From Raillietiella orientalis (lineage: Eukaryota): a stretch of 64,000 bases of DNA. The notes under the pieces were generated by a model. It had not been told where the DNA came from, did no database searches, and was given only the letters and a program-made list of their open reading frames with translations. The position numbers were made by a program, and so were the translations under genes. Below are positions 2,892 through 56,756 of this stretch, piece after piece. The stretch lies in the NCBI GenBank assembly GCA_036172245.1, contig JAYWIR010000035.1:2232001-2296000 (forward strand), read 5' to 3'. The number at the start of each line of letters is the position of its first letter. Position 1 is the stretch's first letter.

Positions 2892-2944
2892 GACGGCGTG
2901 CTCCTCGCCCCGTCCGGCGAGAAGTCAGCTGGTAGGAGAGCGGA

Positions 2945-4810: not shown

Positions 4811-4889
4811 CCCAGTGGACGCACTCGGGTGCACCACACACAAGAAGACGGAAAGGAATCACGCTGGAGGAGCAACGCAGAACACGTCC

Positions 4890-6355
4890 GTGCACCGTTG
4901 TCGTCGAGCGTATTCCCGCCATCGACGAATGCGGCGCTAAAGAACTCGCTGCTGCCCCTGCTCAACCCTCCGTTGACAAAGTCAACAAGGAGGGGAGCGA
5001 GGCGGCGGCGTCCTTCATCGTGCCCACGCTCGATGACGTCGTCTTCGAGCGCGCCGCGGAGGAGCTGGCTGCCTCGTTGCAGCCGGCCGCCCTCAAGGCT
5101 GGCAAGAAGGCCGTCAGGCGTCCGGCTCCCCCTCAGGAGTCGGCCACTTCCGACCCCGAGGTGAAGGCCGGAAACAGAGCATCCATCTCCTCGGCACCCC
5201 GCAAAAAGGCAGGACGAAAGTCCACAATGTCCCGGAAGATCGTCTCCCCCGACGAAGGGGAAGAGATAGCTTCCGGCTGCGAGGGTGCGATAAGCGTGGG
5301 AAACTCCCGGGACCCGTCGCCCGAGAGAATCCCACGCGCTGACACGGACGAGATGGAAGGGCTGGAGGCCGAGCAGGTGCCTTTGGTGCCTGAAGAGGCC
5401 TCGATCGCCATGGACATCCCGAACACCTGCCTCGCGGCAGGTGGTGTAGCGCCACCTTCCCAGCAATAAAGCCGGGAATCGCCTCCCGTCGTGGTCTGCT
5501 GATCGCCTGCTGGAACGCCAACGGCCTAAGCAACGACGGGAAGAGGCGTGACGTGGCCGCCACCCTGGCATTCTTCGACCTGGTGCTGCTGCAGGAGATC
5601 CACGTGATCTCCGTAGATCAAGCCGGGGAGATCGAACGGATCTCGGGTGGTCAGCTGCTGTGGCGCTGCGGTACCGCGAAATCTAGCGCTGTCGCATTCC
5701 TGCTCCGACCAGCCATCGAGGCCGCAATTAAGGACGTACGGTTTGATGACGCCGGTCGCGTCGGTCAGCTGACTCTCAGCTGGTTCGACTCAATCGACCC
5801 GGTCGTTACCAACCTGTACTCTCCTAGCGGTAAGGACGCGTTGAGGGCGAAAGCAAGAAGAGAATTCTACCTTGCCTTCGAACGCGATTGGCTGATCGAA
5901 GCAAGTGTTCGCAAGCGCACCTGATCGCAGGTGACTTCAACCTGCGCCTGCTTTCAGGTGCGCCGGATACACTGAACGACCGCGTCAACGAGTTGTGCGC
6001 GCAAATGCACACGTGCAACTTGCTGGCCGGAGATACGGACATGGAACGGAGCATCGATCACGTGTACCTTGACCAGCACCTATGCTCGCTCGTAAGCAGG
6101 CGCGGCAAGTTACCGTCCGAGCTGTCGGACCATGTTTGAATCGTGTTCGAAGTGCAACCGCGCGACAAGGGCCCCCCTTCGTCACTGTGGCGTCTGCCAG
6201 GGGACTGGCTGAAGTTCCCGGACCCGGTGGAACATCTCCGCGCGTTTTTACGGAACTTCAGGATGCGGACGCTTCAGGACTGGGACCGCTTCAAGCGGTC
6301 GGTCCAGGAGTTCTGCGACCGGTTCCCTTTGCATCGCCTACCTGCGGGATTTGGG
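4890..6355 (+). mobile_element. Family D element, middle part (ORF1 tail + endonuclease), interrupted by A on the left and C on the right
   Basis: ORF1 tail 5020-5469 (AAEELAASL); EN pieces 5553-5924, 5888-6139 and 6143-6355, ending at HRLPAGFG. Confidence 0.85.
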
Positions 6356-6570
6356 GTTGTCACCCGGGTACGCCCGGGGCGTTTATTGAAAGAACTCTGC
6401 ATAAAGGTGGTACGAGGCCCCACTAACGTTCCCACAACACCGGACCTGTTGGGACGCCGGGACGCAGCCCGGCGTGACGCTCCTCGGCATTGGAGGGGGA
6501 TAGGGATGAAAACAAAAAGAAAAATAAAGATAAGAAAAACAAAAAAAGAGTTTGGAGGGAGAGGAAGGGA

Positions 6571-9500
6571 TCACAATCCACTGGGAGGAGGGCCCATCCT
6601 TCGCAGGATGCCCTCCAGGTCCATCTTCATGCTTCCCAGATGGGGCCATCTCCCAGCTCTATGCATGAAGCAGACCGCATACGGGATGACATCCCTCGCG
6701 TTGGCATCCACTCCTTCGTCGCGAATGTCGCTCCAGGCCGCCACGATGCCCCGGATGCAGCAGAGGGCTGCGAGTGCTGCGGCGGGCTGCAGGGCGTCCC
6801 GCACGAAGAGGAGCCGAAGAACGACTCTGGGCGCGCTGCCCATTGGGAAACCGAGGGTCGTCCCGAACCGTTCCCACAGGGGTCGGAGGTCAGCACAGTC
6901 AACAAGTAGGTAGGGGAGCGAATCCCGCTCCCCGTACCTGGCACACTCAGGCCTTACACTTCCCCGCGTCCAGTGGAAGCGGCGCGCGTTGCAGGGTAGA
7001 CCCCAGTGCAACAGTAGCAGCGCCGAATCTTGCCACTTCAGGGGGAGAAGCCTGGATCCGATTAATATTGGCGGCCAATTCAGGTCATCCGTCGAAATGC
7101 CGAGCAGCTCACCCCAGCGACAAAGTCCACGCGGGAGGGCACTCGGGGACGTGGCATCTGCCAGTTCTCCCATGGTCCAACCGCTCATCTTCTTTTCCTT
7201 GCCTGCGATTCGGCAGGAGACCTGCCACTTTGGCTTGCGGCCACTGGTTAAAGCCCTTCGTAGGAAAGGCAGGGTCGAGGCTAGAGGGGTAGTCTCCGCC
7301 CACGTGCTCCTGGCGGGACACTCCAGAGTAGTCCGCAGTGTGCAGCAGGCGTTGGGCCCGAATAGCAGGCGGTTCCAGTCCGGGGAAGTCTGGAGGTTCC
7401 GCTTGGCCCACGTCGCAACGGATTCCTCCAGCCAGGCGGAGGAGTTGGCGGGGATGCATACCGTCCAGCCGTTGTCTCTCACCAGGGCTTCCATGCGCCC
7501 AAGGAGAAGGCCGCATCTTCTCACCTTCCTGCCGGAGCACAGAAGGTACGACGCGAGTCCATGCGTCCTGGACACACAGCTGGCGAAGATGCGGGCTGGA
7601 ACGCACCAAGGGGTGCTCCATGACTTTGCTGCGATGGCGAGGGTGCGCCAACGCAGCTGTATGTCCAGGCGCTCCAGCGTCAGGAGGCCGAGACCGCCGT
7701 CCCGACGAGGAGCACATAAGTCATCTAGAGGCACACGTGGCCTCCCGCTGCCCCAGAGGGCGATGCGCAGTAGGTCCTTGGTCCTCTTTTTAATGTCACA
7801 TGGGACGGGGCAAACAAAAAGCAGGGAGCGGAGGATGGGAGCCGCGAACGCGTTCCACACCGCGGCCCGTTCCGGCAGAAGGAACTTGCCTTCCAGGAAC
7901 GGGCCGATTGCCAATTCTACCTTTTGGAGACGACCTGACCAGGCTTCTGCGAGGCAGAAGTCCCCCAACGGGACACCCAGGTAGTTCAGGTACCTGTCCG
8001 CGGGGATCCCCAAGCGGATCCAGTCAGGCCGTCCGACCCACGTCGCACCCACCGGTACGACCGACGACTTCGCCTTGTTTACCCGAAGTCCAGTCCCACG
8101 ACTTAGCGGGTCGAAGAAATCCTCGACTGCGGCTGCCGGGGCGGACATGGGCAACATGAGCAGAAGGTCGTCGGCGTATGTTGCTACGGCGGGCGTTCCG
8201 GGGCACGAGCTGGGCAGGGCAGCCAAAGTCACCCTGTACGCTCTCAGCACCAACTCAAAGTAGGTGCTAAAGAGCAGGGGACTGAGGCTATCGCCCTGCC
8301 GTATGCACCGCTGCACCGGCACGCCGTACACCTGTTGGCTGTAAAAGCAGATGTTAAGGATGGCGTTGCGCCAGCAGGAGCGCAGGAAGGAGAGAAGGAA
8401 GGGTGGGAAGCCCATGCGACCCAGGAGATCCAACACTAGCTCCTGGTCAAAGCAGTCGAACGCCTTATGGAGATCGACCGCGATCGCTAGGGCCTCCTTC
8501 CCAGCCCGGGTGTCCATTCCCGGCCCAGCTGGCGGCCCCAAAGTGGGGTTGCCAATCTTTCCGCCAGTTTCATTTAGGCAGCGCTGCACATGGAACCATG
8601 TGCTGGCGAAGAACAGGTTGGCATCCATACTTCGCCCGGGAACAGCGTATGTCTGCTCCGGGCTAATTATGGAGTCTGCCACCTGTCCTAGACGCGAAGC
8701 CCACAGTCCAGCGACCAGCTTGGCGTCCGTATTCACAATTGTGATCGGACGCCAATTGCCTAGGGATCTGAGGTCTCCTCCCTTCGGCAGGAGCCTCACA
8801 CGGGCTGACCGAAACGAGGCGGGAACGTCGCCTTCGTCTCGGATCAGCCCGGTCAACTGGAGCACCAGGGGGGCCAGCTCTGTCGCGAAGCATTGAAAAA
8901 ATTCCTCAGGCAGGCCGTCCAACCTCTGGCGCCTTACGCCTCTTGAGCCTTTTAATACCGGTAGAAAAAGGCTCGTCGAGGCTGATCCTCACCTCCTCCC
9001 CTATTGCCTGGCCTCCATCCGGGAGCAGGAGCCGCGAGGCGTCCCGCTGTGGGGGTGCCCTAGCGTAGAGGGAGGAATAATAATGCCGCACGAGGTGCCT
9101 GATCGCGGGTGGGGCCGATCGCTCCCGGCCCAGGTCGTCCAGCAATCTGGCCGACCCGGATTGCCAGGCTTGGCGCTCGGCCCCGGCTCGATATTCGGCC
9201 AGGGGACGGACATTAGGGGTCCTCTTGTACCGGCGGGCCTGTAAATAGGCCCTATGGTTCCGAGCCCCCTCCCCAAATCCGGGGAACAGGCGGTGCAGGG
9301 GGAACTCCTCGCAGAACTCGCGGACCGACGCCTTGAAGAGGTCCCAATCTTTGAGACTGCGGAGGGTGACGCCTCTCAGGAATTCGCGAAGGTGTTCCTT
9401 CGCTCCTGAGAGCCGCATCCAGTCCCCAGGCAACCGCCACGCCCTGGCCGGGGGTCCTTTATCGCGCGGGCATACCTCGGCGATTAACCTGGAATGGTCC

Positions 9501-10156
9501 GACAGCGTCGACGCAACTTTTCCCCGTTTGCCGACCCGCGAGCACAGGTCTACATCCAGGAAGAAGTGGTCGATGCTGCGGTCCATTCCCCCCGCGTCCG
9601 CCAACAAGTTGCGCGTGCGCATGGCAGCGCACAACTCGTTGGCCGTGCGTTCTTGTGCTTCGGGCTCACCTGACAGCAGACGGAGATTTAAGTCCCTAGC
9701 TATCAAGTGTGCCTTCCGCACGTTCGTATCGGCCAGCCAGTCGCGCTTCAGGGTTTCCAGCAACCTGGTACGGTCTCTGTATCCCCCTTTCCCGCTTGGG
9801 GCGTACACGTTCGTGTCGATCAATTCGAACGAGTCGGACCAGCTGAGAATCAGCTGACCGACCCGACCGTCCTCATCGAAGCGTATGCCCTTCACGGCAG
9901 CGTCGATGGCCGGCTTTACGAAAAACGCGATCCCAAAGGTGTTGCGGGCGTTGCATCGCCAATACAGTCGACCCCCCGCGATCGTCTCGATCTCCTGGAC
10001 GTCTGCCGAGGTGATCACGTGGATCTCCTGCAGCAGGGCCAGGTCGAGCTCACGCAGGGTGTCGGCCGTATCTCGCCTGTTACCGTCGTCGCGCAGCCCG
10101 TTGACGTTCCAACAGGCGGCGCGAATCCGACGGCGACTGGCGAGCCCAGGTGTTAT
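6571..10156 (-). pseudogene. Family C ORF2 (EN-RT-zinc finger), frameshifted
   Basis: ORF 8906-10018 (NVYAP, SDH) and ORF 6571-8922 (VDLHKAFD, IRQGD, YADD, YLGVP). Confidence 0.92.
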
Positions 10157-12423
10157 TCCTGGGAAGATGGCGATGCGGCGTCCGCCACCTGTTGGGGCGG
10201 GACGCTAGGTGGAGGAGGAGGGTCAGGCGCTGCGTGCACCTGGTCCCCCTCCTCCATGGGTAACGGCGCGTCGAGGGGGTCACCCTTAAGTGGGGTCGCG
10301 CCTACCTGTTGGCCCTCCTCCATGGGGGCGGGCTGTTCAGGCTCGGCGACTGCAGGGAGGACTTCGCCCCCCTGCTCACCCTCCTCCATGGGGGTGGCCG
10401 GCTCGACGGCTTCCGAGCGTGGGAGTTCCCCCTCCGGGATTCCCACGCTACCGCTACCTTCCTGCTTCTTCTCCTCGCTGGTGGAGGGGAGGCGCCTCCT
10501 GGGTTTCTGGGACTTGCGTCCCGACTTCCTGGGGTTGCCTCCGAGGAGGAGGATCCACTTCCGGCCCCCAGGTCCGACTCACCTGTGGGGGCCTTTTTCG
10601 CGGAAGCCGGCCTTCGCACGGCCTTGCGTGAGGGGTTCTCACGCTCCGCCAGCGTGGCCGCGAGCTCCTCCGCCGCCTTTGCGAACGCGGCGTCCGCAGT
10701 GTCGACCGGCGCGTCGCGCGGCTCACCCTCTGTGTAAACAGAGGGTTCGTCGTCGCGAACCTCGGGCGCGGCGGAAACGGCAAGGGAAGGCTCGTCGCCC
10801 CGGGTGGCAATCTCGGGAACGGCTATGCGCTCCAGTGCTACCGTACATTCCTGCATGGTCTTAGAGCGCGGCCCAGGTTTTTTCGCCTTGCCGGCTGTCT
10901 TTTTTACCGCTTTCGCGGGTTCCGCGGGGTGCACCTTTTTCTCCTTCCTGGCCTTGACCAGCTGCCAGCCGTCTTGGACTCCCGCGTCTTCGGAGGGTTT
11001 TTCTTTCGACGCCTGTGTGGGAGGAACAGGGGCTAGCGGCTGCTGCCGGCTGATGCCTCCGACAAGGAGGATGCACTTCCGGCCCCCAGGTCGCACTCAC
11101 CTGCGGGGGTCTTCTTCGGCGGAGCCGGCCTTCTCACGGCCTTGCGTGAGGGGTTCTCACGCTCGGCAAGCGTGGCCGCGAGCTCCTCCGCCGCCTGCGC
11201 GAACGCGGCGTCCTTGCTTTCGGTGCGCGCATCGCGCGGCTCACCCTCTGTGCAAACAGAGGGTTCGTCGTCGCGAACCTCGGACGCGGCGCAAACGGCG
11301 AGGGGAGGCTCGTCGCCCCGGGTGGCAGCGTAGGGGACCGCAATCCGTTCGAGTGCCACCGTGCACTCGCGAAGAGTTTTCGAGCGCAGACCGGGTTTAT
11401 TCGGTTTCGCGCTCTTTCCTCTTTTCGCTCTCGCGGGTTCCACGGGGGGAACTTTTTTTTCTTTTCTGGCCTTTACCAGCTTCCATCCTTCTTCCTCTCC
11501 CGCGTCTTTAGCGGGTTTTTCCTCCGACGCCTGGGTGGAAGGAACAGGAGATGGCGGCTGGGGCCGGCCAGTTTCGCGATAAGGTCTTTCGACCTTTTTT
11601 CCTTTTTTAGCCTGCGCCTTTTTGGCAGCAGGTGGCACCGGGGTGGGGCGTTTGGGGCACACACGACGAACGTGTCCCTTAACTTCGCACAAGTGGCACT
11701 CGATATTCGGGCACCGCTTGGGCAAGTGCCCTACTGCATCGCAGTAGCCACAATAGCGGGGTTTCCCCACGTACCAGAGATCGACGAATTCCTTTGCGAC
11801 CTCCAGTTTGTGGGGCAAGCCACTGCCCTCATTAACTGTTACACGAGCTGCGGCCTGGCCTCCGAAATGGCTATTAAAGCCTTCGAAAATGGTAGGCTTT
11901 GGCCACAACGCGTGTATCTCACCGTAGTTACTTAGTGCATTACTCACCGCAGATCGCGTCATGCGGTTCGTAATGCCGGTTAGATGGACCACTACGGAGC
12001 GGTCCATGCTAACCGGCAGGATCTTCCGGCCATCCACATTCAGCGGGGTGTTAATGAGACGCTGCGCTAAGGCTACGTCTTTGCAGACGACCTCCACGCG
12101 CTGCCCTCCGCTGAGTACGACGAGGCCGTCTAGATCCTCCTCGCGTACAGGGAAATCCTGCAGTGCCCTACTAAAAGCTTGGGCGGTGCGACCATCAAAC
12201 AGGGGTCCTTCCTTATAAACGAGAGATGGTTTGTATCCAGAGCCCTGTAGGCCGCTTGCTCTGCCAAGGTTTCCGCTCTCGGCGCGGAAACCATGGCGCT
12301 CCACGTCCTCGGCGGTGCCGGGGATGATTCCGGGGCGGACGCCCCTGATTCTGCAGGCTGTGGGGGTGGGCAAGCCTCCCCGACACCTACCTCCATCGTG
12401 GTGTCCTCAGGCATTGCTGCCAT
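10153..12423 (-). pseudogene. Family C ORF1 with two CCHC knuckles; frameshifts and internal duplication
   Basis: CGYCDAVGHLPKRC and CHLCEVKGHVRRVC in ORF 11033-12373; continues in 10302-11096 and 10153-10446. Confidence 0.85.
10535..11570. repeat. Diverged ~520-bp tandem duplication inside family C ORF1
   Basis: GW(K/Q)LVKARKEKKV...ECTVALERI...AAEELAATLAERENPSRKAVRRPA occurs twice. Confidence 0.85.
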
Positions 12424-12510
12424 CGGACACCAACGATGTTCCACACGAACACACACAAAGAAAAGACCGCTTTCTGTCGACTCGCTCGGGAGCTCAGGAA
12501 AAACACGTCC

Positions 12511-15436
12511 GCTCGCCAAGGGATTTGGGAAGGGGCCGCGTAACGAAAGATGCTATCTTCAGACCCGACGTTACGCGAGAACCCCCGACATGCGCAGCTT
12601 AGCAGAGTTTCGAGCGGGAGCCGAGAGGCAAGCCTGGCAATCCGGGTCGGCCAGCTTGCTGGTCGACCAGGGCCGGGAGCACTCGGCTCCTGCTCAGAAG
12701 CGCTGGATTGTGAAGAAATTTTACTCCTCCCTTCACGTCAGGGCGCCTCCGGAGCGAGACGTCTCACGACTTCAGCTTCCGGAAGGTGCTCCAGCGATTG
12801 GGGAGGAGGAGAAAAGAAGCCTCGACGAGCCTTTTACGATGGTCGAGATCCTCTCGGCCATCGGAAAGCTCAAGAGGCGGAAGGCTCCAGGGGAGGACGG
12901 CCTGCCCGCGGAGTTTTACCAAACTTTTGCGGCAGAGCTTACCCCTCTGCTACATCAGCTCACCTTGCTGATTCGCGAGACAGGTGACGTTCCCACCTCG
13001 TTTCGTTCAGCAAAGGTGCGGCTCCTCCCGAAGGGGGGAGACCTAAGGAGCATGAACAACTGGCGTTCCATCACAATATTGAATGCGGACGCCAAGTTGA
13101 TAGCCAAGATGTAAGTAGAGCGTCTGGGACGGGTTGCCAACATCTTCTTCAGCCCGGAACAGACTTATGCTGTTCCCGGGCGGAGCATGGAGGCGAACCT
13201 GTTCCACGCTTCCACATGGTTAGAGCTCCAACAAAGAAGGGGCTTATTGAGCAGCCGGAATTCCGGTGCGTCCGTTATTGGGAGACGGAACGGTCGGGTG
13301 GGGAAGGGAGCCCTTGCGGTCGCTGTCGACTTGCGTAAAGCATTCGACAGCGTCGACCAGAATCTCCTGCTGGAGCTTCTGGAACGCTTGGGCTTCCCGG
13401 CCTCTTTGTTGGCCTACCTGCGCTCCAGCTGGCGCGACGCGCTCATTAATGTTCTTTTCAGCGGGCAAACCGTGCACGGAGTACCGTTGCGACGCAGCAT
13501 ACGGCAGGAACACAGCCTGAGCCCCCTGCTCTTTAGCGCTTTTTTCGAATTGGTGCTGAGAGCGTACAGGGAGACTCTGGCGCACGTGCCGCGCGATTGT
13601 CCCGGTACGCTTGCGGTTTCGGCATACGCGGACGATCTTCTGCTACTGCTCCCTATGTCCACCCCGGCTTCGGCGGTTTAGAAGTTCTTCGACCTGCTGC
13701 ATTGGGGAACTGGACTTATGGTGAACAGGGGGAAGTCGTCCGTAATGCCAGTCGGAGCGGCGTGGGCAAAGCAGCAGGACTGGGTCCGTTTGGGGATCCC
13801 TACGGTGAGGTACTTCAAGTACCTTGGTGTGCCGTTGGGGGACTACTCCCCTGCGGAAGCGTGGTCCGCCTGCCTTCAGAAGGTTCAGGCGGTGATAGGC
13901 CCGTTCCAGGACGGCAGGTTCTACCTGCAGGAACGGGCCGCGGCGTGGAACGCGTTTGCGGCACCCCTCCTTCGCATCTTGCTTTTTGTTTGTCCCCCTC
14001 AGCGAAGTCTAGGAAAAGGACGAAGGACCTCCTGAGGATAGCCCTTTGGTGCAGAGGGAGGCCCCGAGTCCGTCTCGCGGACTTGTGGGCTCCGCGTCGG
14101 GACGGCGATCTTGGCCTCCTGACGCTGGAGCGGCTGGAGCTTCAGCTCCAGTTCCGGAGTGTTGCCTTCATGGCAAAAAATTGGTGGACCGCCTGGTGCC
14201 TCCCTACACGTCTCCTCGTCGAACGGGCCACCGGCAATGCGATACCTTCGTCCTACTTTGCACTCCGAAGCCCCATCTGCCACTGCGGACTTCAGCTTCG
14301 AAGGGCGGCCAAGCTCGTGAATACCAACTCGGCGCGTATCCTCGTACGCCCCGCTAACGGTCCTGCCTGGTTGCAGGAAACCGTCCGCACGTGGGCGATG
14401 ACTCAGGAGCAGAGCCCGCAACACGAACGAACAGCTCTGTTCGGGCCTCACGCCCACCGCAAGCTCCGAGAAATCTTCGAGGATCCCCGAAGGAGAGCGT
14501 GGACTCAAGGAACCTCCCTTGCTGCGGTACTGCTTACCCTACGGGAACATCTGGGCAGCGACGTCGCAGCACAATGGGAGGTTGCTGTCAAGATCGCCAG
14601 CAGGGCAAAGAAGATCGGGGATTGCAGAACGGGTCAGCTCACCAACGCTGCGACCCCGAGGACCAATCCACACGGACTCTTGCGCTATGGCGAGCTACTG
14701 GATATTCCGGAGGAACATCTGGAGTGGCCCCCGGTGCTCATGGACTCGCGCACCCTCTTCATCAAGTGGCAACAGTCGGCACTCCTGGTGTTGCACTGGG
14801 GCCTCCCCTGCAACGCCCGGCGACACCACTGGACGCAAGGGGCTGTCAACTTCAATTGTCTCAGGTGCGTGGAGAGGGAATACCTCCCCCACCTGCTAGT
14901 GGAATGTGTTGCCCTCCGTCCCTTGTGGGAACGCTTTGCCGCAGCCCTGGGGATCCCCGGAAGCAACCCCAGAGATGCTTTGCGCCCCCTCTTCGTCCGT
15001 GATGCTCTGCCTCCGGCGGCCTCGCTTGCAGCCCTGTGCTGCCTACGCGGGATCGTCGTGGCCTGGAACAAAGCGACGGGAGGGTCCAGCGACAGAAACG
15101 CCACCGTGTACGCCGCCGGTTTCCTAAGGATGGAGACGCGATGGCCAAATCTGGAACCCACCATTCAGCGACAACTTGCCGGCATCCTCCAGAGGATGAC
15201 GGACCCTCCCAGCAGACAGTGATCACTTCCCGCTCCCTTCCCGGTTTTGTTTATTTTTTTGTTTTTTTTTTCTTTGATTCCCCCTTCCCTCTGCTGCCGA
15301 GGTCAACCGCGCCGGTCTGTGCACCGGTAGCCCGGCAGGCTGAATGTTTCCAGGACGTGGCTGGACTACTGGTCCAGTCGCAGTTCATATGAGTTTATTT
15401 GAAAAAATAAACGTCCTGGCGTACCGCGTTTAAAGA
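12511..15436 (+). mobile_element. Family D element, 3' part (RT to 3' end); continuation of 4890-6355
   Basis: Resumes at LAKGFGKGPRNER; RT pieces 12511-13114, 13187-13681 (YADD), 13718-14035 and to 15222 (CLRC..HLLVEC); ends AATAAACGTCCTGGCGTACCGCGTTTAAAG. Confidence 0.88.
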
Positions 15437-15777
15437 GAGACTCTAGAGCGTGACGTCTCTCAGCAATTCGCGAAGGTGTTCCTTCGAACCTGAGAGTCGC
15501 GTCCAGTCCCCCGGCATACGCCAATTCCTGGATGGCGGTCCCTTGTCGCAAGGCCGCATCTCGTAAATTAACCGGGAATGGTCCGACAACGTCGACGCAA
15601 CCCTCCCCCGTTTGCCGACCCGTGAACACAGGCAAGCGTCGAGAAGGACGTGGTAGATGCTGCGAACCATTCCCCTCTCACCCGCGAACAAGTTGCGCGC
15701 ACGCATGGCGGCGCACAACTCGTTCATCGCGTTCTCTTGTGTTTCTGGCTCACCTGTTAGCAGACGGAGATTGAAAT
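15437..15777 (-). mobile_element. Family C endonuclease fragment
   Basis: ORF 15443-15784, FNLRLL...SDHSRL...RDVTL; matches 63235-63563. Confidence 0.85.
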
Positions 15778-18511: not shown

Positions 18512-18584
18512 GGACGCAATTGTGGATAGAAAGTTTTTCTTTTCTGGTGCTTCGTATGTGTTTCGCGGCCGTTGGCAGGCAGAA

Positions 18585-20198
18585 ATGCCTTTGAACGCTG
18601 CAGTTTCAGGTGAGGGAGGCAAGAAGACCGCGTCTCCCAAGCCAAAGGAGGTGGGATCACGCCCCACCACTTCTTCTGAACCCGCCACTACGGCGAGGGG
18701 CTGGAGCGCGGTGGCAGCGGCGGAAACGCCCGATGTCGCCGCCGAAATCCAATCCTACATCCAGGAGGGCTACAATCCGGCCCTCCTGTACAAGGTAGGC
18801 AATTTATATTCCCCGTTAAGGGCGCGAAAGTTCGGCAATGCCATCAAAAAGATGGGCATTGCCGACCATGAAATTCTTTGCCTCTCTATACGGAGCGGAG
18901 GGCAGTTGGCGGAGCTCATCTGCAAGGATGCAGCTCTTACCCACAAGATGCTCTGCACGCCCGTACAATTTGAGGGCAGGAATTTACTCCCACACACGGT
19001 GGACCACTCCATTGTGGTCCACCTAACAGGGACAACAGTACGGATGGATGAGAACGCCATCCGCGCTGAACTGGAAAAATACGCAAGCGTTTTCGCGATG
19101 TGGAGAAAGCCCAACACCTTCGGAGTGAACGTTGCATTTAGTGGGCGAGCAGGCGCGCGCGTGACGCTTCGAGAAAGCGTACAGCTTCCCCACAAGCTCC
19201 AAATTGGCGAAGAGTTCGTCGACATTTGGTTTGTGGGAAAACCTAAATTTTGTGGAAACTGTAAGTCGTTCGGGCATTTGAAAAAGCGGTGCGCGGACGC
19301 AGTTTGCCCAACGTGCGGCGCGAAGGGCCACACCAAAGTGGTGTGCCCGATGAACGTCGCTCCAACGCCGGAACTTCCGCAAAAGAAGGAAGGGAAGGCA
19401 AAAATAGTGATAAACCCCACAAAAGGGGATCAGCCGTCGGCTCCGACAAAAGTCGCGCAGCAGGAAAGGGACTCGGTACAGAAGCTCCCGGAAAAGACTG
19501 CCGACGAGGAAGGCTGGCAGCTGGTCACCCGTAAAGTAAAAATTGTTAAAAAAACCGCGCCCGCACCGGCGAAAGTGGTGAAGGGCAAGGGGAAGGTCGC
19601 GCCACGCCCAACAATCAAAGCGTGCAGCGTGGCCATCAAACGCGTGCCGGCGATCGATACTCGCTCCGCTGACGGATCGATGCGACGTGACGTCACGCCA
19701 GCTGTTCAAGCCGCCGCCGCGCGAACGCCGACGCCGCGACAAAGTCGCGAGCCCAGCGTGAGCAGCGACGACCGGGACTTCAACAAGGCGGCGGAAGAGT
19801 TGGCAGCCATGCTCCAGCAGCCTCCCAAGGCCCAGAAGAAGGCCTTGAGGCGTCCGGCTGAGGCGAAAGGACCGGAGACTTCCGAGTCCGAAGCCGAAGC
19901 CGGCAAGGCTCCGGCTGTCGCTCTCCCGAAGCGCAAAGCGGGCCGCAAGGTAGGCAACCCGCGGCGCTCCGCACCTCCACCGGCGGAGGAGGAAATGCGG
20001 TCGGACGACGACGACGGGGAGGCGATGTCCGCGAGGTCTCGCGACTCCTCGCCGGAGACGTCCCTGGCCAAGCAGGATCCTCCAACCACCACCACAACCA
20101 CTTACGGACCGCCTCCTTGCGAGCAACAGCCCGTCGCAATGGATACACAACTCCCGCCTGCTGAACAGCAGGCGGAGGACGGTAAGCAAGCACAATAA
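18585..20198 (+). CDS. Family F ORF1, intact 537-aa zinc-knuckle nucleic-acid-binding protein
   Basis: ATG at 18585, open to TAA at 20198; CGNCKSFGHLKKRC and CPTCGAKGHTKVVC; low-complexity tail. Confidence 0.88.
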   Translation: MPLNAAVSGEGGKKTASPKPKEVGSRPTTSSEPATTARGWSAVAAAETPDVAAEIQSYIQEGYNPALLYKVGNLYSPLRARKFGNAIKKMGIADHEILCLSIRSGGQLAELICKDAALTHKMLCTPVQFEGRNLLPHTVDHSIVVHLTGTTVRMDENAIRAELEKYASVFAMWRKPNTFGVNVAFSGRAGARVTLRESVQLPHKLQIGEEFVDIWFVGKPKFCGNCKSFGHLKKRCADAVCPTCGAKGHTKVVCPMNVAPTPELPQKKEGKAKIVINPTKGDQPSAPTKVAQQERDSVQKLPEKTADEEGWQLVTRKVKIVKKTAPAPAKVVKGKGKVAPRPTIKACSVAIKRVPAIDTRSADGSMRRDVTPAVQAAAARTPTPRQSREPSVSSDDRDFNKAAEELAAMLQQPPKAQKKALRRPAEAKGPETSESEAEAGKAPAVALPKRKAGRKVGNPRRSAPPPAEEEMRSDDDDGEAMSARSRDSSPETSLAKQDPPTTTTTTYGPPPCEQQPVAMDTQLPPAEQQAEDGKQAQ

Positions 20199-21088
20199 AC
20201 ACACCAACGCGTGGACTCTCCTCCTGCCGGCGACTGCGCGTAATCTGTTGGAACGTCAACGGGTTGCGCGACGACGGCAAGAGGAGAGAAGTGGCCGCCA
20301 GCATGCGGGACTTCGACCTGGCGCTTCTGCAGGAGACGCACGTGCTCCACGCAGGGGAGGCCCAGGAAATCGAACGGATCGCAGGCGGGCGGCTCGTATA
20401 CCAAAACGGGAGAGACCACACCCGCGGTGTGGCTTTCATGCTGAAGCCAGCCGTCGTTAATGCGCTGCGCGACGTGCACTTCGACGGGGAAGGTCAAATC
20501 GGGCAGCTTGTTGCCAAGTGGTCCGACGCGATCAACCTCGTCGTGACCAACGTGTACGCGCCCGGCACGAGCCACAGGCGCGGGGAACGCACTGCGTTCT
20601 TCAAAGGCCTGCGGCGAGATTGGCTGGCCGAAGCAGACATGCGAAAGGCGCACCTCATTGCCGGGGACTTTAACGTCCGCCTGCTGGCAGGTGCGCCCGA
20701 CATTCGCGCACAGCTTGTCAACGAGATGTGCGCTGCCATGCACGCGCGCAACTTGTTGGCCGGTGACGCCGGGACGGAGACGAGGATCGACCACATGTTC
20801 CTCGACAACCACCTGTGTTCGCGGGTGGGAAATCGAGGGGCAGTGCCATCCGAACTTTCCGACCATCCCCGGCTGGCGCTAGAAATACACCCGCGCGGTA
20901 GAGGTCCACCCTCCACAGCGTGGCGTTTGCCCGGGGACTGGTTGCGCCTCGAAGGAGCAGCGCAACATCTTCGCTCGTTTCTGCAAGGCTTCCATCTGCA
21001 GTCGCTCGCGGACTGGGACGACTTGAAGAGCTCACTCCGCGAGTTCTGCGACCAGTTTCCCCTGAACCGTCTCCCTCCAGATTTCGGC
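20195..21088 (+). pseudogene. Family F ORF2 endonuclease domain (open frame, truncated by insertion)
   Basis: CWNVNG, LLQET, NVYAP, AGDFN, RIDH and SDH all present. Confidence 0.9.
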
Positions 21089-24000
21089 GTTGCCACCCGG
21101 GTACGCCCGGGGCGTTTATTGATAAACTTTACATGCGTGGTAGAAGGCCCCACCACGACCGTAAACACAGGACCTGTCGGGACACCGGGACGCAGCCCGG
21201 CGTGGCACTCCCCGACAGCGAAGGGGGATGGGGATGAGACAAAAAGTAAAATAAAAAGAAACAAACAAAAAGAAGTTGGAGGGCAGGGAAGGGATCACTG
21301 GTCGCTGTGGGGAGGGCCCATCCGTCGAACGAAGCACTCGAGGTCAGCCTGCATATTCCCCAGTTAAGGCCATCCGGCAGCTCTTCGCAAGAAGCGTTTG
21401 GCATACGGGATGACATCCCTCGCCTGTGGACCCACTCCTTCGTTGTTGGCGTCGCTCGATGCCCCCACGATGCCACGGACGCAGCACAAGGCTGCGATGG
21501 CTGCGGCTGGCTGCAGTGCGTCCTTAACGAAGAGGGGCCGAAGAACGTCTCTGGGGGTGCTGCCCGTAGGGAGCCCAAGGGTCGTCCCGAACCGTTCCCA
21601 AAGGGGTCGGAGGGCAGCACAATCCACAATAAGGTGGGGAAGCGACTCCCGCTCCCCGCACCTGGCACACGCAGGATCCACAGCTCCCCTCGTCCAGTGG
21701 AAGCGGCGCGCGTTGCAGGGTAGACCCCAGTGCAACAAAAGCAACGCCGACTCTTGCCCCTTGAGGGGCAGGATCCTGGATTCCTTCATCACCGGGGGCC
21801 ACTTCAGCTCATCCCTGGGGATGGCGAGCAGCTCGCCCCATCTTAATAATCCTCGCGGCTGGACGCTCGGGGTCGAGGCGTCGGCCAGTTCTCCTGTTGT
21901 CCAGCCGCTGATCAACTTCTCGCGTCCCTCGATGCAGCAGGAGACTTGCCACCTTGGCGTCCGGGTGCTGTGAAGTGCCCTCCTTAGGAAGGGTAGCGCC
22001 GTAGCTAGGCAGGTCGTCTCTGCCCACGTGCATCTTGCTGAACTCTCCAGGAGATTCCGCAGCGTGCAGCGGGCGTAGGGGCTGCATCGGAGACGATTCC
22101 ACGTTTCGTGGCTTCTCTGGTTGACTACTGCCCACGTTCCAATATCCTCCTCCAGCCAAGCGGGGGAGTTGGCGGGGCAGCAAACCATCCAGCTGTTCTC
22201 CTTGGCCAATGTTGCCATGCGCCCGAGCAGTAGGCCGCATCTTCGCATCTTCCGGCCACGGCTCAGAAGAAAAGACGCGAGTCCATCGCACCGGGACACA
22301 CGGCTGGCCAGGAGGCGGGCCGGAGTGCACCAAGGGGTGCTCCACATCTTCGCTGCGATGGCGAGGGTTCGCCACCGCAGCTGCTGTTCCACGCGCTCCA
22401 GCGTCAGGAGGCCAAGACCGCCGTCCCGACGCGGAGCGCACAAGTCCTTCAGTGGGACTCGGGGCCTCCCTTTGCCCCAAAGGGCGATACGGAGGAGGTC
22501 CTTCGTCCTCTTCTTGGATTCCACGGTGGGGGGGCAAACAAAAAGCAAGGGGCGGAGGATGGGGGCCGCGAAGGCGTTCCAAACCGCGGCCCGTTCCGGC
22601 AAGTGAAACTTGCCTTCCAGGAACGGTCCGATCGCCGTCTCGACTTTTTGGAGGCAGCTGGACCACGCTTCCACAGGGGAGTAGTCCCCCAACGGCACAC
22701 CAAGGTACTTGAAGCACCTCGCCGTGGGGATCCCCAGACGGACCCAGTCCTGCTGCCCTCCCCACGCCGCACCTATTGGCACAACCGACGACTTCGCCCT
22801 GTTAACCTGCAGTCCGGTCCCGCGGCTGAGCAGATCGAAGAAGTCTCCGACCGCCTTCGCCGGAGTGGACATTGGCAACAAAAGCAGAAGATCGTGGGCG
22901 TACGCTGCTACGGCAGGCGTGCCGGGGCACGAGCTCGGCAATGGGGTCAAAGTCACCCTGTACGCTCTCAGCACCAACTCAAAGTAGGTGCTGAAGAGCA
23001 GGGGGCTGAGGCTATCTCCCTGCCTTATGCCCCGCCGCACCGGCACGCCATACACCTTTTGACCGCTGGAAGAGACAGTAATTATCGCATTCCGCCAGGA
23101 AGAGCGCAGGTAAAAAATCAGGGAGGGTGGAAAGCCCATGCAACCCAGGAGCTCCAAGAGGAGTTCCTGGTCTACACAGTCGAACGCCTTGTGGAGGTCG
23201 ACTGCGAGCGCTAGGGCCCCCTTCCCCGCCCGGGGGTCCCTTCCCAGCTCGGCTGGAGGCCCCAATGTGGGGTTGCCGACTTTCCCTATCCCTTTCTTTT
23301 CTCTTCTCTGCAGGTGCACCCATGTGCTTGCGAAGAAGAGGTTGGCATCCATACTTCGACCAAGAACAGCATATGTCTGCTCCGGGCTAATTATGGATTC
23401 TGCAACCAGCCCCAGACGCGAAGCCCATAGCCCGGCAACCAACTTGGCGTCCGTATCCACAATCGTGATCGGACGCCAGTTCTTTAAATCTCTGAGGTCT
23501 CCCCCTTTCGGAAGGAGCCTCACTCTGGGTGACTGAAACGAGGCAGGAACATCGCCTTCGTCTCGGATCAGTCTTGTCAGCTGGAGCAGGAGGGGTGCCA
23601 GCTCTTCCGCGAAGCTCTGGTAGAACTCCGCGGGCAAGCCGTCTTCTTCTGAAGCTTTGCGTTTCTTGAGCCTTTTGATACCGGCGAGAATTTCGCCGGT
23701 CGTAAAAGGCTCATCGAGGCTTAACGACTCCTCCTTTCCTATTGCCGCGGCACCATCCGGAAGCAAGAGCGGAGAGGCATCTTGATCCGGGGGCGCCCTG
23801 GCGTAAAAAGAGGAATAATAACTCCGCACAAGATGCCGAACCAACGCCGGGGACGAACATTGCCGGCCCTGGTCGTCCAGCATGCTGGCTGACCCGGATT
23901 GTTAGGCTTGGGGTTCGGCCCTGGCGCGGTACTCGGCCAGGCAACGGACATTAGGGGTTCTCTCGTACCTACTAGCCTGTGAATAGGCCCGATTGTTGCG

Positions 24001-24430
24001 AGGACCCTTGCCGAATCCGGGGGGCAGGCGGTCCAAGGGGAACTGCACGCAGAACTCCCGGACCGAGGCCTTACAAAGGTCCCAATCCAGAAGACTTTGG
24101 AAGGTGACGCGTCTCAGGAATTCGCGAAGGTGTTCCTTTGCACCTGAAAGTCGCGTTCAGTCCCCCGGCAGACGCCACTCCCTGGATGGCGGTCCCTTGT
24201 CGCGAGGTTGCATCTCGAAAATGAGCCGGGAATGATCCGACAGCGTCGACGCAATCTTCCCCCGTTTGCCGACTCGTGAACACAGGTCAGCGTCGACAAA
24301 GACGTCGTAGATGCTGCGGACCATTCCCCTGTCAACCGCGAACAAGTTGCGCGCACGCATGGCGGCGCACAACTCGTTCATCGCGTTCTCTTGTGTTCCA
24401 GGCTCACCTGTTAGCACGCAAAGATTGAAT
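21089..24430 (-). mobile_element. Family C element (from EN FN motif to 3' end)
   Basis: ORF 21364-23883 (839 aa; RT motif reads YAHD; CARCGERESLPHLIVDC); hairpin 3' end at 21089-21120. Confidence 0.9.
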
Positions 24431-27400
24431 TTTTTCACCCGGTCACGCCTGGGAGTTTATTGAAAATAAATCGGTCAAAGACGATGTCCTTAACCAAAGA
24501 AACGACAAGAAGCAAAGAGAAGTTACCGGCACATAGGCCTGGTTAACAAACCGCTTCCAACATCACTGAGGGCGTAGAGGGATAAGAAACAAAAATCAAA
24601 ATCTGGAGGGAGAGGAAACGGGTCTTTGGTGAAGCTCCGTACTCACGGGGATTCAAATAGAGAGCACCTAAAATGTTCCGCAGCATAATAGGGCGTAAGT
24701 GGAAAGAAAAAAAAAAAAAAAAAACATTTGAAGGGGGCGAGGAGAAAGGTTCACCGGGTGCGCTGTTGGGTAGCGTCTGTAAACCGTCGGAATATGCTAG
24801 CGAGATCCCTTTTGGTATCCTCGGTAAATTGAGGCTATCTGGCGGCTCCTTTTATACAGAAAGATGCTTTGCTGATCACCTCTTGGTACTGCTTATTGAT
24901 TATCAGCGCCTGGCGGAAGGAAACTATCGCGCGTATGCAACCGATGATTGCAATCCTTGCGCTTGTACACAGCCCGCTCGGAGTGAAGAATCGTCGCAGC
25001 AAGTCTTTTGCGGTGTCCACGAGATGCGAGAGTGCTGTTGCCAGCCTGCGCCACGGTCCTTGTAGGACACTGCAGTTTAGAAGTAGGTGCGGATTCGACT
25101 CCGTCGATCCGCACCGAACGCAGTTCGCAGACGCAAGTCCCATGGAGTCACGATGCCAACGCTCGTTGCACTGAAAACCCCAGTGAACGAAAAGCATCAA
25201 GGCTTGTTTCCAAGCAAGGGGGAGCAGCGAACTGTCGACACACTGTGGAGGGACTACAAGTTCTTCGGTGGTGACTTTAAGTTCTTCTGCCCACCGGAGG
25301 AGTCCCTTTGTAGTAGGACGAAAAGTGGGGGCCTCCGCCTACTCACTCGTCTTCTAGGCGCCAAGGTGTTCCGTTTTTCCCGCTATCGTGCAGGAAACCT
25401 CCCACCTCGCCGGTTGGCAACTGTCGTTTCTTGCCCTGAGGGCATACAGCGCTGCGAAAAGAGGTGTGGTAGCCAGGGTAGAGAACTTCACCTCGTCCTG
25501 CAGTACTTCTTCCAAGGATCGTGGAAAAAATCGGTGCAGGGTGCGAAGATCTTCAGGACGTATTCCTTGGAACGCCGCCCAGGATTCAACAGACTCCTGC
25601 CGCCAAGCTTTAAAGTTCATTGGGCGGCAGGAGATCCACGAGTGAGCTTCCAGAAGTGCGGTCAACTGCCGCAATGGAAACCCGAAACCCCGCTTCCTGT
25701 ATTGAGTGCCCGGCAAAAGCGAGAGAAATCCTCCGCTGCCGGCGCATCTCCGCAGGAGAATGCGTGCTGGCACACACAGGGGGGATGTCCATAGCTGGGC
25801 ACACACTGCCAGCAGTCGGAACTGCACCTGCAGTCCGATTCGCTCCATTGTCAAGATACTCAAACCAGCATCCCGACGCGGAGCTAACAAATCTTTAAGG
25901 CGGATCCTGGATCTCGCCGGATCCCAGAGAGCGTTCCTGAGCAGGCGTTTAGCCCGCTGTTTTGCCGCATAGGGTGGGTCCAAAACAAGAAACAGGGGAC
26001 GGAGGAGGGGGGCCACAAAGGTGTTCCAAATAGTCGCCCGTTCCTGCAAGGTAAACTTGCCGTTAAAGAACGGGCTGATGGCCAACTCTGCTTCCTGAAG
26101 GCAGTCCGCCCACGCTTCGGCTGCGCTGAAAGCGCCCAACGGAACGTTAAGGTACTTAAAGTACCCGCCCGTGGGGATCCCCAGGCGGATCCAGTCGGAC
26201 TGCGCCTCCCACGACGCACCCACAGTAAGGACCACGCTCTTCTCTCTGTTCACGCTCACTCCCGCTCCCCGACGAATCAGGTCAAAGAAATCCTCGACAC
26301 TGGACGCCGGGGTGGACATGAGGAGCAGAAGAAGCAGGTCATCAGCGTAGGCCACCACGGCAGGCGTACCCGAAGAGGAGCATGGCAAGTGAGACAGGGT
26401 CAGCCTGTACGCTCTCAGCACCAACTCAAAGAAGATGCTAAGGACCAACGGCCTTAAGCTGTCGCCCTTTCGGGTGCCCCTTCGCACGGGAATACCGTGT
26501 ACGCTGCAGCCGCTCAAAGTGATGCAGGTTAGCGCGTGGCGCCATTATGCGCGCAAATACAGCAGGAGTTGCGCCGGGAACCCATGGCGTTCCATAAGCT
26601 CCAAGAGCAGCTTCTGGTTTAGGCAGTCGAACGCCTTGTGAAGATCGACCGCGACCGCCAAGGCACCTGGCGTTCCCTCCTGCCGACGGCGCCTGCGGCT
26701 GCGACTTTCTCAGCAGCCTGGCTTTGCTGCGCTATGACTTCCTGCAGCTGCATCCATGTACGCGCGAAAAGGATGTTTGCCTCCATGGATCGTCCCGGAA
26801 CCGCATAGGTTTGTTCCGGGCTCACCACAGATTCCGCGATGCTTCCTAACCGCGCGACCCACAGCTTCGAAAACAACTTGACGTGCGAGTTCACCAAGGT
26901 GATCGGACGCCAGCTGTTTAGTTGGCGCAAGTCTCCGCCTTTTGGCAGGAGACGCACCTTCGCTGAGCGGAATGAATACAAGACATTCCCGGATTCACTC
27001 ATCAGCGTCGCGAGTTTCAGCATCAAGGGAATGAGCTTCACTGCAAAGCACTGATAAAACTCTGCAGGGAGCCCATCCTCGCAAGGCGCCTTTTGTCTCT
27101 TCAGCCCAGCGATGGCGGACGAAAATTCATCCGCCGTGAAGGGATCGTTGAGACGTTCGCGTTCCTCCTCGCCGACAACAAGAGCATCCTGAGACAGGAG
27201 TATCTCAGAAAGAATATCTTCCGTCGGGGATTCCGCGAACAGCGAGGAGTACTAGAGTCTCACAATGAGGCGTACTTCGGCTGGGGCCGAACATTCCTGA
27301 CCCTTGTCGTCCAACAGGCATGCTGCTTCGGACTGCCAGACCTGGCGCTCGGCCCTCGCCTTGTACTCCGCGAGACGCCCGACATCCGCGCATCTCGAAA

Positions 27401-27660: not shown

Positions 27661-28641
27661 CATGAGCTCGATTTCCAAACTCCGTCCATGCAGGTGGACA
27701 TCGACCAGCCGCCTCTTGAACAGGAGGCGGCTACACAATCGCCACCACCATCATTAGCATGATGCGTGTAATCGCCTCTTGCCGGCAGCTGCCTATAGCC
27801 TGTTGGAATGTCAACGGGCTGCGCAGCGAAAGCAAGAGGCGTGGCGTGGCCGACACCCTGCGACCTTCCGACCTGGTTCTTCTTCAAGAGTTCCACGCCC
27901 TGAGAGGAGAGGACGTCCAGGAGATCGAGAGGCTTGCAGGGGGAAGGCTACTTTGGCGATCCGGTGGAGACCACTCCCGCGGAGTGGCCTTCCTGCTGAA
28001 GTCAGCCATCGCCAGGGAAGTGCGCAGTATTCAGTTCGACGAGGAAGTTCGAGTTGGGCAACTTGTCCTCAAGTGGTCCGACTCGATCGACCTCGTGGTC
28101 ACGAACGTATACGCGCCCTGCAGCAGCCACAGGCGCGGAGAACGCACTGCGTTCTTTAAAGCCCTGCGGCGAGACTGGATGGCCGGAGCAGGCGTGCGGC
28201 GAACACACCTCATAGCGGGAGACTTCAACGTCCGCCTGCTGTCGGAAGCGCCCGACATAAAAGCACAACTGGTCAACGAGTTGTGTGCGTCGATGCACGC
28301 GCGCAACTTGTTGGCCGATGAAGCCGGGGCGAGAAGCAGAATCGACCACGTGTTCCTCGATAACCAGCTGTGCACGCGGGTGGGGACTCGAGGCGCACTT
28401 GCGTCGGAGCTGTCCGATCACCCTCGGGTAGTGTTCACCATCCATCCGCGCGACAGAGGTCCACCCTTCGAAGCGTGGCGCCTGCCAGAAGACTGGTTTA
28501 GACTCGCAGCAGCGCGCGAACATCTGCGTAGACCTGCGTGGTTACGAACTGCAGACTCTCGCTGACTGGGACAAAATAAAACGCTCAGTCCGAGAGTTCA
28601 GCGACCAGTTTCCCCTCCATTAACTTCCTCCAGGTTTCGGC
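27661..28641 (+). mobile_element. Family F 5'-truncated element: ORF1 end + endonuclease
   Basis: ORF 27759-28565 with CWNVNG/LQE/NVYAP/GDFN/SDH; ends at CCAGGTTTCGGC (PGFG). Confidence 0.87.
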
Positions 28642-31600: not shown

Positions 31601-32450
31601 TTCGCAGAACTCCCGGACCGAGTCCTTAAATAGGTCCCAATCCGCGAGACTCTGGAGGGTGACGCCTCGCAGGAATTCGCGAAGATGTTCTTTCGCTCCT
31701 GACAGGCGCGTCCAGTCCCCTGGCGTACGCCAATCCCTGGATGGCGGTCCCTTGTCGCGCGGGCGCATCTCGAATACTAACCGGGAATGGTCCGACAGCG
31801 TCGATCCAAGTGTCCCTCGTTTTCCGACCCGTGTGCACAGGTCTTCATCGAGGAAGACGTGGTCCACGCTGCTGACCATCCCGCTTATTTCTGTCAACAA
31901 GTTGCGCGCGCGCATGGCGGCGCACAACTGGTTGATCGCGTTCCCCTGTGCTCCGGGCTGATCTGAGAGCACACGGACGTTGAAATCCTCTGCCATCAGA
32001 TGCGCCTTTCGCACGTCCGCGTACACCAGCCATTCGCGCTTCAAGGTTTCAGTAACGCTTTGCGCTACTGATATCCCTGTTTACCGTTTAGAGCGTACAC
32101 ATCGGTGACGATGAGGTCGATCGAATCGGACAATCAGACAATCAGTTGTCCGATCCGTCCGTCGTCCCCAAAGCGCACGCCCTTTACGGCCGCGTTAATG
32201 GCTGGCTTTAGAAAGAACGCGAACCCACAAGTGTTGCGGGCGCCGCATCGCTAGTACAACCGCCCTCTCGCGATCGTTTCGATCTCGTGGGCATCTTTTG
32301 CGGTGATCACGTGGATCTCCTGCAAAAGCACCTAGTCGAAATCTCGCAAGGAGGCGGCTGTTTCTCGTCTGTTTCCGTCGTCGCACAGCCCATTGACATT
32401 CCTACTGGGCGCGCGGATCCGACGGCGACAGGCAAGTCCAGGTGTTATTC
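28642..32450 (-). mobile_element. Family C element, 5'-truncated at ORF2 start, degenerate
   Basis: ORF 30998-32044 and fragments to 28866; YADD codons near 30447-30458; hairpin 3' end at 28642-28672. Confidence 0.87.
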
Positions 32451-32454
32451 CAGA

Positions 32455-38372: not shown

Positions 38373-38379
38373 GCACTCG

Positions 38380-40683: not shown

Positions 40684-40690
40684 TCCGACT

Positions 40691-47805: not shown

Positions 47806-47825
47806 GCTCGACGCTCCAGAGTCTC

Positions 47826-51238: not shown

Positions 51239-51255
51239 CGTTCTCCTTTGCCAGG

Positions 51256-56745: not shown

Positions 56746-56756
56746 CGTTCTAGGGT

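Follow-up and report, generated by a model that had tools for sequence, protein, structure and literature searches.

Site-specific long interspersed nuclear elements (LINEs) are known for rRNA, snRNA and tRNA genes, microsatellites, telomeres and one DNA transposon, and Tx1L inserts into the Tx1D element. Nested LINE-only arrays have been proposed as centromeres in several green algae. In excerpts of the published descriptions, the Tx1 and R1 clades are target-specific LINEs with an apurinic/apyrimidinic endonuclease (APE) and transposons are among their listed targets (PMC4640811), while Zepp is GC-rich (61%; PMC3446292) and both Zepp and L1-1_CR end in poly(A), being listed with (A)n (PMC3472496). 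The current study concerns a window of 64,000 nucleotides (nt) from Raillietiella orientalis (NCBI GenBank assembly GCA_036172245.1, contig JAYWIR010000035.1, positions 2,232,001 to 2,296,000 of the forward strand), which is a nest of LINEs only, of the APE type and L1/Tx1-like, and one LINE family within it, here called family C, of which six copies (C1 to C6) are discussed. With a probability of about 70%, family C is a target-site-specific, tail-less LINE aimed at the sequence GGWTTYGGS in the linker between the endonuclease (EN) and reverse transcriptase (RT) domains of LINEs, its own family included.

Like members of the Tx1 clade (Tx1L, Keno, Mutsu) and the R1 clade (R1, TRAS, SART), family C combines an APE endonuclease with an RT and occupies a repeated, conserved target base-precisely and in one orientation. 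Unlike them, its target is a coding motif of the second open reading frame (ORF2) of LINEs, including its own, and not an RNA gene, microsatellite, telomere or DNA transposon. The window also resembles the Zepp and ZeppL L1 LINE clusters of green algae in containing only nested LINEs at approximately 60% G+C. In contrast to Zepp and L1-1_CR, an A-run is present at none of the six C 3' ends, which read ...GGGTGACAAC, ...GGTGGAGTC and similar, and the excerpted descriptions of Zepp and ZeppL give neither a codon-level or nucleotide-level target nor an antisense rule. Site-specific LINEs and Zepp-type nested clusters are already known. No description of a LINE with a codon triplet of another LINE's ORF2 as its fixed target was found in the full-text literature, a coverage that excludes the original Zepp papers, which possibly contain junction data.

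Junctions of family C in LINE linkers

An earlier note on this DNA had quoted four junctions between host LINEs and the 3' end of family C, and all four are present letter for letter in the sequence:

6355/6356, host D: GGATTTGGG followed by GTTGTCACCCGGG
21088/21089, host F: GATTTCGGC followed by GTTGCCACCCGGG
28641/28642, host F': GGTTTCGGC followed by GACTCCACCCGGA
52396/52395, reverse strand, C-family host: GGATTCGGC followed by GATTCCACCCGGA

The claims that the codon is the same, the insert antisense and the hosts different also held: all four hosts read ...FPL.RLP.GFG in frame up to the junction with C on the opposite strand, and they belong to three families (D, F/F' and C). A blastn search with the final 345 nt of C1 recovered six family-C 3' ends in the window, and in four of these the base following the Gly-Phe-Gly codons (GGWTTYGGS) is the 3'-terminal base of C on the opposite strand. 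The inventory of the earlier note was therefore sound for the four junctions and incomplete for the rest, two further C 3' ends (32462 and 54640) having been overlooked. On the sense strand, the 3' end common to all C copies consists of AAUAAAC, a CCCGG(G)/(C)CCGGG hairpin, UG and then 4-5 variable nt, the terminus carrying CACCCGGRTACGCCSGG and 5 further nt. A 17-nt terminal pattern of C, allowing at most two mismatches, occurs eight times in the window (0.07 expected), comprising the six C ends plus one B-type and one F-type 3' end.

The clearest case is C1, which lies within host D:

4939..6355, plus strand: left part of host D, from the end of ORF1 to EN amino acid (aa) 315, collinear with 57981-59399 of the related element D'
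6346..6355, plus strand: left copy of the target-site duplication (TSD), GGGATTTGGG, 10 bp, its last 9 nt being the Gly-Phe-Gly codons of host D
6356..12519, minus strand: C1, full length (6,164 bp), with ORF1, EN, RT and the 3' hairpin and no poly(A)
12520..12529, plus strand: right copy of the TSD, GGGATTTGGG, after which host D continues ...KGPRNER
12520..15433, plus strand: right part of host D, with linker, RT and 3' end, collinear with 59406-62249 of D'

The TSD that had been proposed for this element was borne out. C1 is a true insertion with a 10-bp TSD, because GGGATTTGGG stands on both sides of it, host D resumes behind the second copy, and the uninterrupted D' is collinear across 59394-59402 with a single copy of the site, thus providing an empty homologous site. 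C1 carries one frameshift between EN and RT. It also contains a 515-bp internal tandem duplication (10536-11050 versus 11054-11568, 82% identity) located in the basic C-terminal part of ORF1 and the spacer. The one related public read run (X1; word share 0.10) was mapped to 5000-24900 at 80% likeness, with 453 of 721 contigs less than 90% alike. Among the joints listed for X1, one contig forms a head-to-tail stack, passing from the C 5' end (12514) through nine other letters into GGGATTTGGG and on to position 6346 at the C 3' end, and a second contains a D-like linker without an insert.

All 12 EN-RT linkers in the window were aligned, and four are interrupted while eight are not. The uninterrupted ones include the four to which the earlier note had pointed (9272-9280, 24010-24018, 59394-59402 and 63142-63150):

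9272-9280, minus strand: GGATTTGGG, in the linker of C1 itself
24010-24018, 31565-31573 and 63142-63150: GGATTCGGC in each
27444-27452: GGATTCGGA
1989-1997 and 43794-43802: AGCTTCGGA in each
59394-59402: GGTTTTTAG, in D'

GGATTYGGS or GGATTCGGA is thus found in five of these eight linkers, compared to AGCTTCGGA in both A copies and GGTTTTTAG in D'. Across the window, 24 matches to the degenerate 9-mer GRWTTYGGS were counted, with 13.1 expected. With the TSD copy excluded (n = 23), four of the eight occurrences in linkers are occupied by C but none of the 15 elsewhere (hypergeometric P = 0.008); the recognised site is therefore probably longer than 9 nt, or context matters. Chance placement was considered and excluded by simple arithmetic, three further coincidences having a probability of approximately 1e-12 given 12 linker sites and 128,000 strand-positions.

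The two additional C 3' ends each adjoin the 5'-truncated end of a C-family neighbour on the same strand (EN aa 15 of C3 at 32462; ORF1 aa 129 of the C-family host at 54640), and each is preceded, in register, by a target-like 12-mer (CCAGATGTCGGC and CCGACATTCGTC, respectively). When scored with a matrix built from the four canonical sites and compared with all 12-mers of the window, these two rank in the top 1.8e-4 and 2.8e-3, while moving the register by 1-5 nt gave nothing better than the top 12%. Repeated insertion at a single site would account for both ends, as would off-target insertion. The 12-mers may represent retained TSDs, but they are partly readable as the neighbour's coding sequence, and off-target insertion or 5'-junction microhomology would look the same.

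Independence of the insertions and competing explanations

The remaining copies and their hosts are arranged as follows:

18700..21088, plus strand: left part of host F, ORF1 and EN aa 6-315, ending GATTTCGGC; start approximate
21089..24438, minus strand: 3' part of C2, reaching from the 3' end as far as EN aa 169 and keeping its RT frame open
38380..40687, minus strand: 5' part of C2, from EN aa 173 to the true 5' end, with the family's 5' terminal motif
27702..28641, plus strand: left part of host F', EN aa 1-318, ending GGTTTCGGC
28642..32451, minus strand: C3, 5'-truncated at EN aa 15
32450..32461, plus strand: target-like 12-mer CCAGATGTCGGC between the 5' end of C3 and the 3' end of C5
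32462..33596, minus strand: C5, 5'-truncated at approximately RT aa 490
33614..36515, plus strand: right host part (X-right), beginning about 25 codons past Gly-Phe-Gly; start approximate
about 33595-33611 and 51239-51255: snap-back, a 17-nt inverted copy of the adjoining C sequence CCTGGCAAAGGAGAACG, at the truncated 5' junctions of C5 and C4
51254..52395, plus strand: C4, its body identical to C5
52396..54639, minus strand: left part of the C-family host, ORF1 aa 129 to EN aa 318, cut exactly after GGATTCGGC
54640..56745, minus strand: 3' part of C6, with flank CCGACATTCGTC; the element resumes at 62312-63564, past the nested D'

The two halves of C2 are separated at EN aa ~171 by a nested B2 element with a TSD of approximately GRTTGAAAT (24427-24435, 38380-38388). 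No right part of host F was found in the window, the 5' end of C2 adjoining a recent duplication instead. D' (56753-62311, full length) lies antisense in the RT 'VDLHKA' codons of a C element and is flanked by a 15-bp TSD, GTCGRACGCCTTGTG (56731-56745 and 62312-62326, 14 of 15 positions identical); since this TSD is inside the C element, 54640-56745 and 62312-63564 form one copy, C6.

A single old insertion of C into an ancestral LINE, later copied with its host by segmental duplication or composite retrotransposition, could also place C at the same codon, the junction being inherited. Alignments by blastn do cross the junctions (5883-9672 with 20615-24410, and 20209-24417 with 27764-31972, both at approximately 77.5%), and the window contains two recent inverted segmental duplications (also blastn), linking 1-5100 with 40691-45780 (97.3%) and 32453-35096 with 49754-52403 (98.9%), the latter including the copies at 32462 and 52395, which have body, 5' truncation and right flank in common. 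However, the RT regions of C1, C2 and C3 are only 76-79% identical (21-24% apart; 78.3% for C1 versus C2) and the hosts are 26-35% divergent, mainly at third codon positions. In the RT comparisons, third-position mismatches are approximately twice as frequent as those at positions 1 and 2, the fractions at positions 1, 2 and 3 being 0.178, 0.143 and 0.330 for C1 versus C2 and 0.193, 0.153 and 0.379 for C1 versus C3; for the host EN they are 0.325, 0.258 and 0.480 (F versus D) and 0.207, 0.199 and 0.375 (F versus F'). This third-position bias indicates purifying selection, which places the divergence in active lineages rather than after insertion; such selection could not have acted on a host ORF2 interrupted by 6 kb. 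In addition, open RT frames are kept in C1 (805 aa) and C2 (839 aa), while in a simulation of frame survival (2000 trials) random substitution of 11% left neither frame open in any trial and 5% left 0.7-1.6% open. The 5' ends also differ, C1 being full length with a TSD, C2 full length and later split by B, and C3 truncated at EN aa 15. The comparison of host and insert phylogenies that the earlier note had suggested showed them to be incongruent: in maximum-likelihood trees, the host pairs are D-left and D' (100/100), F and F' (86/91), and C3 and the C-family host (100/99), while the inserts group as (C2,C6) and (C3,(C4,C5)), both at 100/100, with C1 apart. F and F', although sisters, therefore hold inserts from separate subclades, and a sister copy of C3 lies beside a C-family host. 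These results refute inheritance of one old junction for C1 at 6356, C2 at 21089 and C3 at 28642, and as a general account it is very unlikely.

The claim of independent events thus stands for these three copies and fails for the insert at 52396, which the earlier note had treated as separate. The copy ending at 52395 is, together with its right flank, a 98.9% identical inverted duplicate of the copy at 32462 over 2.65 kb. Because C4 and C5 share their body, their truncation (approximately RT aa 490), the 17-nt snap-back and the right host part, they represent one insertion event that was later copied. Their 21 differences are unevenly placed, with two at the very end of C, within its terminal 20 nt, none over the adjoining 1,124 nt and 11 in the final 100 nt before similarity stops in the conserved RT core. 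C4 is flanked on the left by the C3-like host, whose EN is 87% identical to that of C3, and on the right by an element of another family. If a separate C copy had entered the C-family host earlier and was then overwritten by a conversion tract, this arrangement would be expected, although it does not prove such a history. The firmly independent canonical events thus number three (C1, C2 and C3), with C5 in F' as a fourth and possibly the 52396 junction as a fifth. An origin of the 52395 copy from a read-in transcript (5' transduction) was not favoured, since clustering of the differences at both ends of the tract fits conversion better. Twin priming was rejected because it would put the 3' end of the element at the outer TSD and not at the inversion joint, and 3' transduction of host sequence was rejected because the hosts belong to different families and D continues beyond the insert. 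One boundary of each inverted duplication lies within 10 nt of an element end (the C2 5' end at 40687; the C 3' end at 32462/52395).

At the F' site, the order is F'-left, C3, the 12-mer, C5 and an F'-type right part. X-right is probably the right part of F', and its start about 25 codons after Gly-Phe-Gly therefore points to a target deletion of approximately 70 nt; about 70 nt of host were lost beside the snap-back at both C5 and C4. The 12-mer CCAGATGTCGGC agrees with the F' site CCAGGTTTCGGC in 10 of its 12 letters and may be read as a retained TSD copy, in which case C5 would be the first hit on F' and C3 a second hit on the left TSD copy of the occupied site. Double insertions are, by its title, the subject of a preprint (10.1101/158386). 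C3 upon C5 with a target copy between them is what would be expected from a second hit, as in R1/R2 tandem dimers, with the difference that C stacks sit inside other LINEs while R1/R2-type stacks sit in rDNA or snRNA genes. Tandem insertion of Utopia in U2 genes is mentioned in an excerpt of PMC4640811.

Three other explanations bear on how C reaches the linkers. It is possible that C has only a loose preference, in which a short nick motif (e.g. TTCGGC) is combined with a landing bias to the LINE array through chromatin or proximity, and the linker is merely the best-conserved copy of the motif. The two C 3' ends outside linkers, at ACATTCGTC and GATGTCGGC, are in keeping with this, as is the entry of other families of the window into LINEs at several different sites; nevertheless, the vacancy of all 15 other GRWTTYGGS sequences compared to half of those in linkers, together with a base-exact register in four of four cases, makes such a preference unlikely. 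Alternatively, C might move between homologous linkers by gene conversion or break repair, in the style of intron homing, without new reverse transcription. While the tract-like distribution of differences in the 32462/52395 pair resembles this process, the 10-bp TSD of C1, inserts 21-24% apart with a signature of selection, differing 5' truncations and hosts that are only 63-74% identical beside the site, and hence poor substrates for recombination, leave it highly improbable as the route of spread. Finally, the junctions could be assembly artefacts of collapsed repeats, given that the region is highly repetitive and two duplication boundaries coincide with element ends. Such artefacts are scarcely credible here, since diverged paralogues rather than identical repeats flank the junctions, the TSD and the collinear empty site form a consistent picture, and contigs from an independent run contain both an empty D-like site and a C-C stack.

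Several observations count against a site-specific family C. A TSD was found for only one of the six C copies, and each of the X1 joints is a single low-depth contig. Recent inverted duplications and probable gene conversion have affected the array, and some junctions can therefore be inherited. Half of the eight linker sites with a matching 9-mer are empty, leaving occupancy below saturation, and two of the six C 3' ends lie outside linkers, with target-like flanks that overlap the neighbour's own coding sequence. The right host part was not found for F, begins about 70 nt downstream for F' and comes from a family other than that of the left part at 52396. The 3' hairpin, predicted in all seven ends folded, is not significantly better than in shuffled sequences (z of -0.5 to -1.4), and covariation in it was not seen. 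In addition, all of the evidence comes from one window of one array, and C copies elsewhere could occupy other sites.

Possible mechanism and its implications

If family C is site-specific, it would integrate by target-primed reverse transcription at 5'-GGWTTYGGS-3' on the sense strand of the Gly-Phe-Gly codons of the linker. The C endonuclease is predicted to nick the sense strand of the host LINE immediately after the third codon, which in the linker target stretch CTACCTGCGGGATTTGGGAAGGGGCC would be after ...TTTGGG. The freed 3'-OH would then prime cDNA synthesis from the extreme end of the C RNA (AAUAAAC-hairpin CCCGG/CCGGG-UGNNNNC); the orientation of the inserts implies that the primer is the host sense strand ending ...GGWTTYGGS-3', and priming at the nick from the RNA terminus would leave every copy antisense to its host with a base-precise 3' junction. 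A second nick on the other strand, placed about 10 bp upstream on account of the 10-bp TSD, would produce that duplication. The TSD would restore the site at the 3' side of the C element already in place, and the linker of every incoming C would supply another, so that further hits could stack C elements head to tail or nest them and the LINE-only array would grow. Specificity presumably resides in the EN domain, the 3' hairpin may be the RT entry site, and the GGWTTYGGS rule may hold genome-wide. It is also possible that a read-through RNA tail pairing with the target helps targeting; in R1, a read-through RNA tail is complementary to the target site.

If its target is a conserved coding motif within the ORF2 of LINEs, such an element would be a parasite of parasites, and it would supply a concrete sequence rule by which LINE-only nested arrays can grow without touching genes. 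It would also imply an APE endonuclease with a recognition site of approximately 10 nt and predict that LINE families are engaged in an arms race over the linker motif, and cluster formation would become directly testable on a complete assembly of the source organism. A broader and more tentative proposal, to which we give somewhat less than even odds, is that the array was built by a guild of LINE families, each homing to particular ORF2 codons of one another and of themselves: C antisense after Gly-Phe-Gly, D-type antisense after Thr-Leu-Gln-Ser-Leu, and B-type in sense orientation in the EN 'DLNL' codons. As with homing endonucleases, a functionally needed target motif would resist mutating away; such an essential motif might keep the site and disable competitors, giving a self-expanding, gene-free LINE island and a base-level mechanism for Zepp-like, possibly centromeric, clusters.

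Structure of family C and of the surrounding array

Family C is an APE-type non-LTR retrotransposon of approximately 6.2 kb, probably in the L1/Tx1 group, with an ORF1 that may contain a CCHC knuckle and an ORF2 composed of EN, linker and RT. The EN of C1 matches PF03372 over residues 32-237 (E = 1.6e-6; 28.5 bits with a cut-off of 24.5) and the human L1-EN chains 2v0s and 1vyb (E = 2e-4 to 5e-4), and the RT downstream of it matches PF00078 (E = 6e-18 in C1, 1e-17 in C2). In ORF1 of C1, the match to zf-CCHC_2 is weak (E = 0.0086; 16.3 bits, below the cut-off of 27), and a C-x2-C-x4-H-x4-C pattern is visible in the translation. The nearest protein-atlas cluster is 'Transposon TX1' (0.97), which is only a lead towards a possible placement in the Tx1 clade. 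Insertion signatures in the array comprise the 10-bp TSD of C1, the 15-bp TSD of D' and 5' truncations at EN aa 15 and RT aa 490.

Termini are shared across families. The hairpin sequence also terminates B-type elements, D' and the F-type element, with a degenerate form in D and G, and in C-, B- and F-type copies and D' a CCCGG-loop-CCGGG hairpin lies about 25 nt past AATAAA. A 5' motif, GAGCGGACGTGTTTTTCC (at most four mismatches), opens the full-length C copies and copies of the B, D' and Y types:

12497-12514, minus strand: shared 5' motif
38359-38376, minus strand: shared 5' motif
40670-40687, minus strand: shared 5' motif
47792-47809, minus strand: shared 5' motif
56753-56770, plus strand: shared 5' motif

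The window has a G+C content of approximately 60% overall (53-64%). Fragments of LINE ORF1, EN or RT cover its full length on both strands (tblastn with the proteins of the best-preserved element as queries), and among twelve long open reading frames examined with Pfam, RVT_1 was identified in five and Exo_endo_phos in one. Outside the window, a protein search placed the closest homologue, on a 2.9-kb contig, at 64% identity and all others at no more than 29%, the distant matches (24-29%) including Xenopus, plant and Mucorales proteins. A pattern scan of genome contigs with the C RT returned 48 matches, none of them a relative. A metagenome scan with the 3'-end pattern CACCCGGN{4,9}GGGRCGTTWATT returned 41 loci, none similar to the LINEs of the window by tblastn or blastn; these loci were dismissed as chance matches, none being LINE-like.

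Other families in the array also enter LINE coding sequence. The F-type 3' end (36515; joint at 36516) lies antisense in the ORF1 region of B2 and the A' 3' end (~46609/46610) antisense in the ORF1 region of Y, and no common site was seen between these two insertion points. Two D-type 3' ends, those of D (plus strand, 15433/15437) and G (minus strand, 47811, flank 47796-47810), are both preceded by ACGCTCYAGAGTCTC, which corresponds to the Thr-Leu-Gln-Ser-Leu codons that a C-like linker carries some 30 codons upstream of Gly-Phe-Gly, in antisense orientation. At 47811, just the ACGCTCYAGAGTCTC 15-mer is left before the full-length 5' end of the D-like element Y (47809), a stacking like that of C. 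Three B-type 3' ends (15778/15779, 24438/24439 and 63564/63565) fall at the same spot, the 'DLNL' codons of a C-like EN at aa ~171, on the same strand. On either side of the joint these composites resemble one another at 75-95%, and all three may go back to a single event or to the copying of a C element that carried B.

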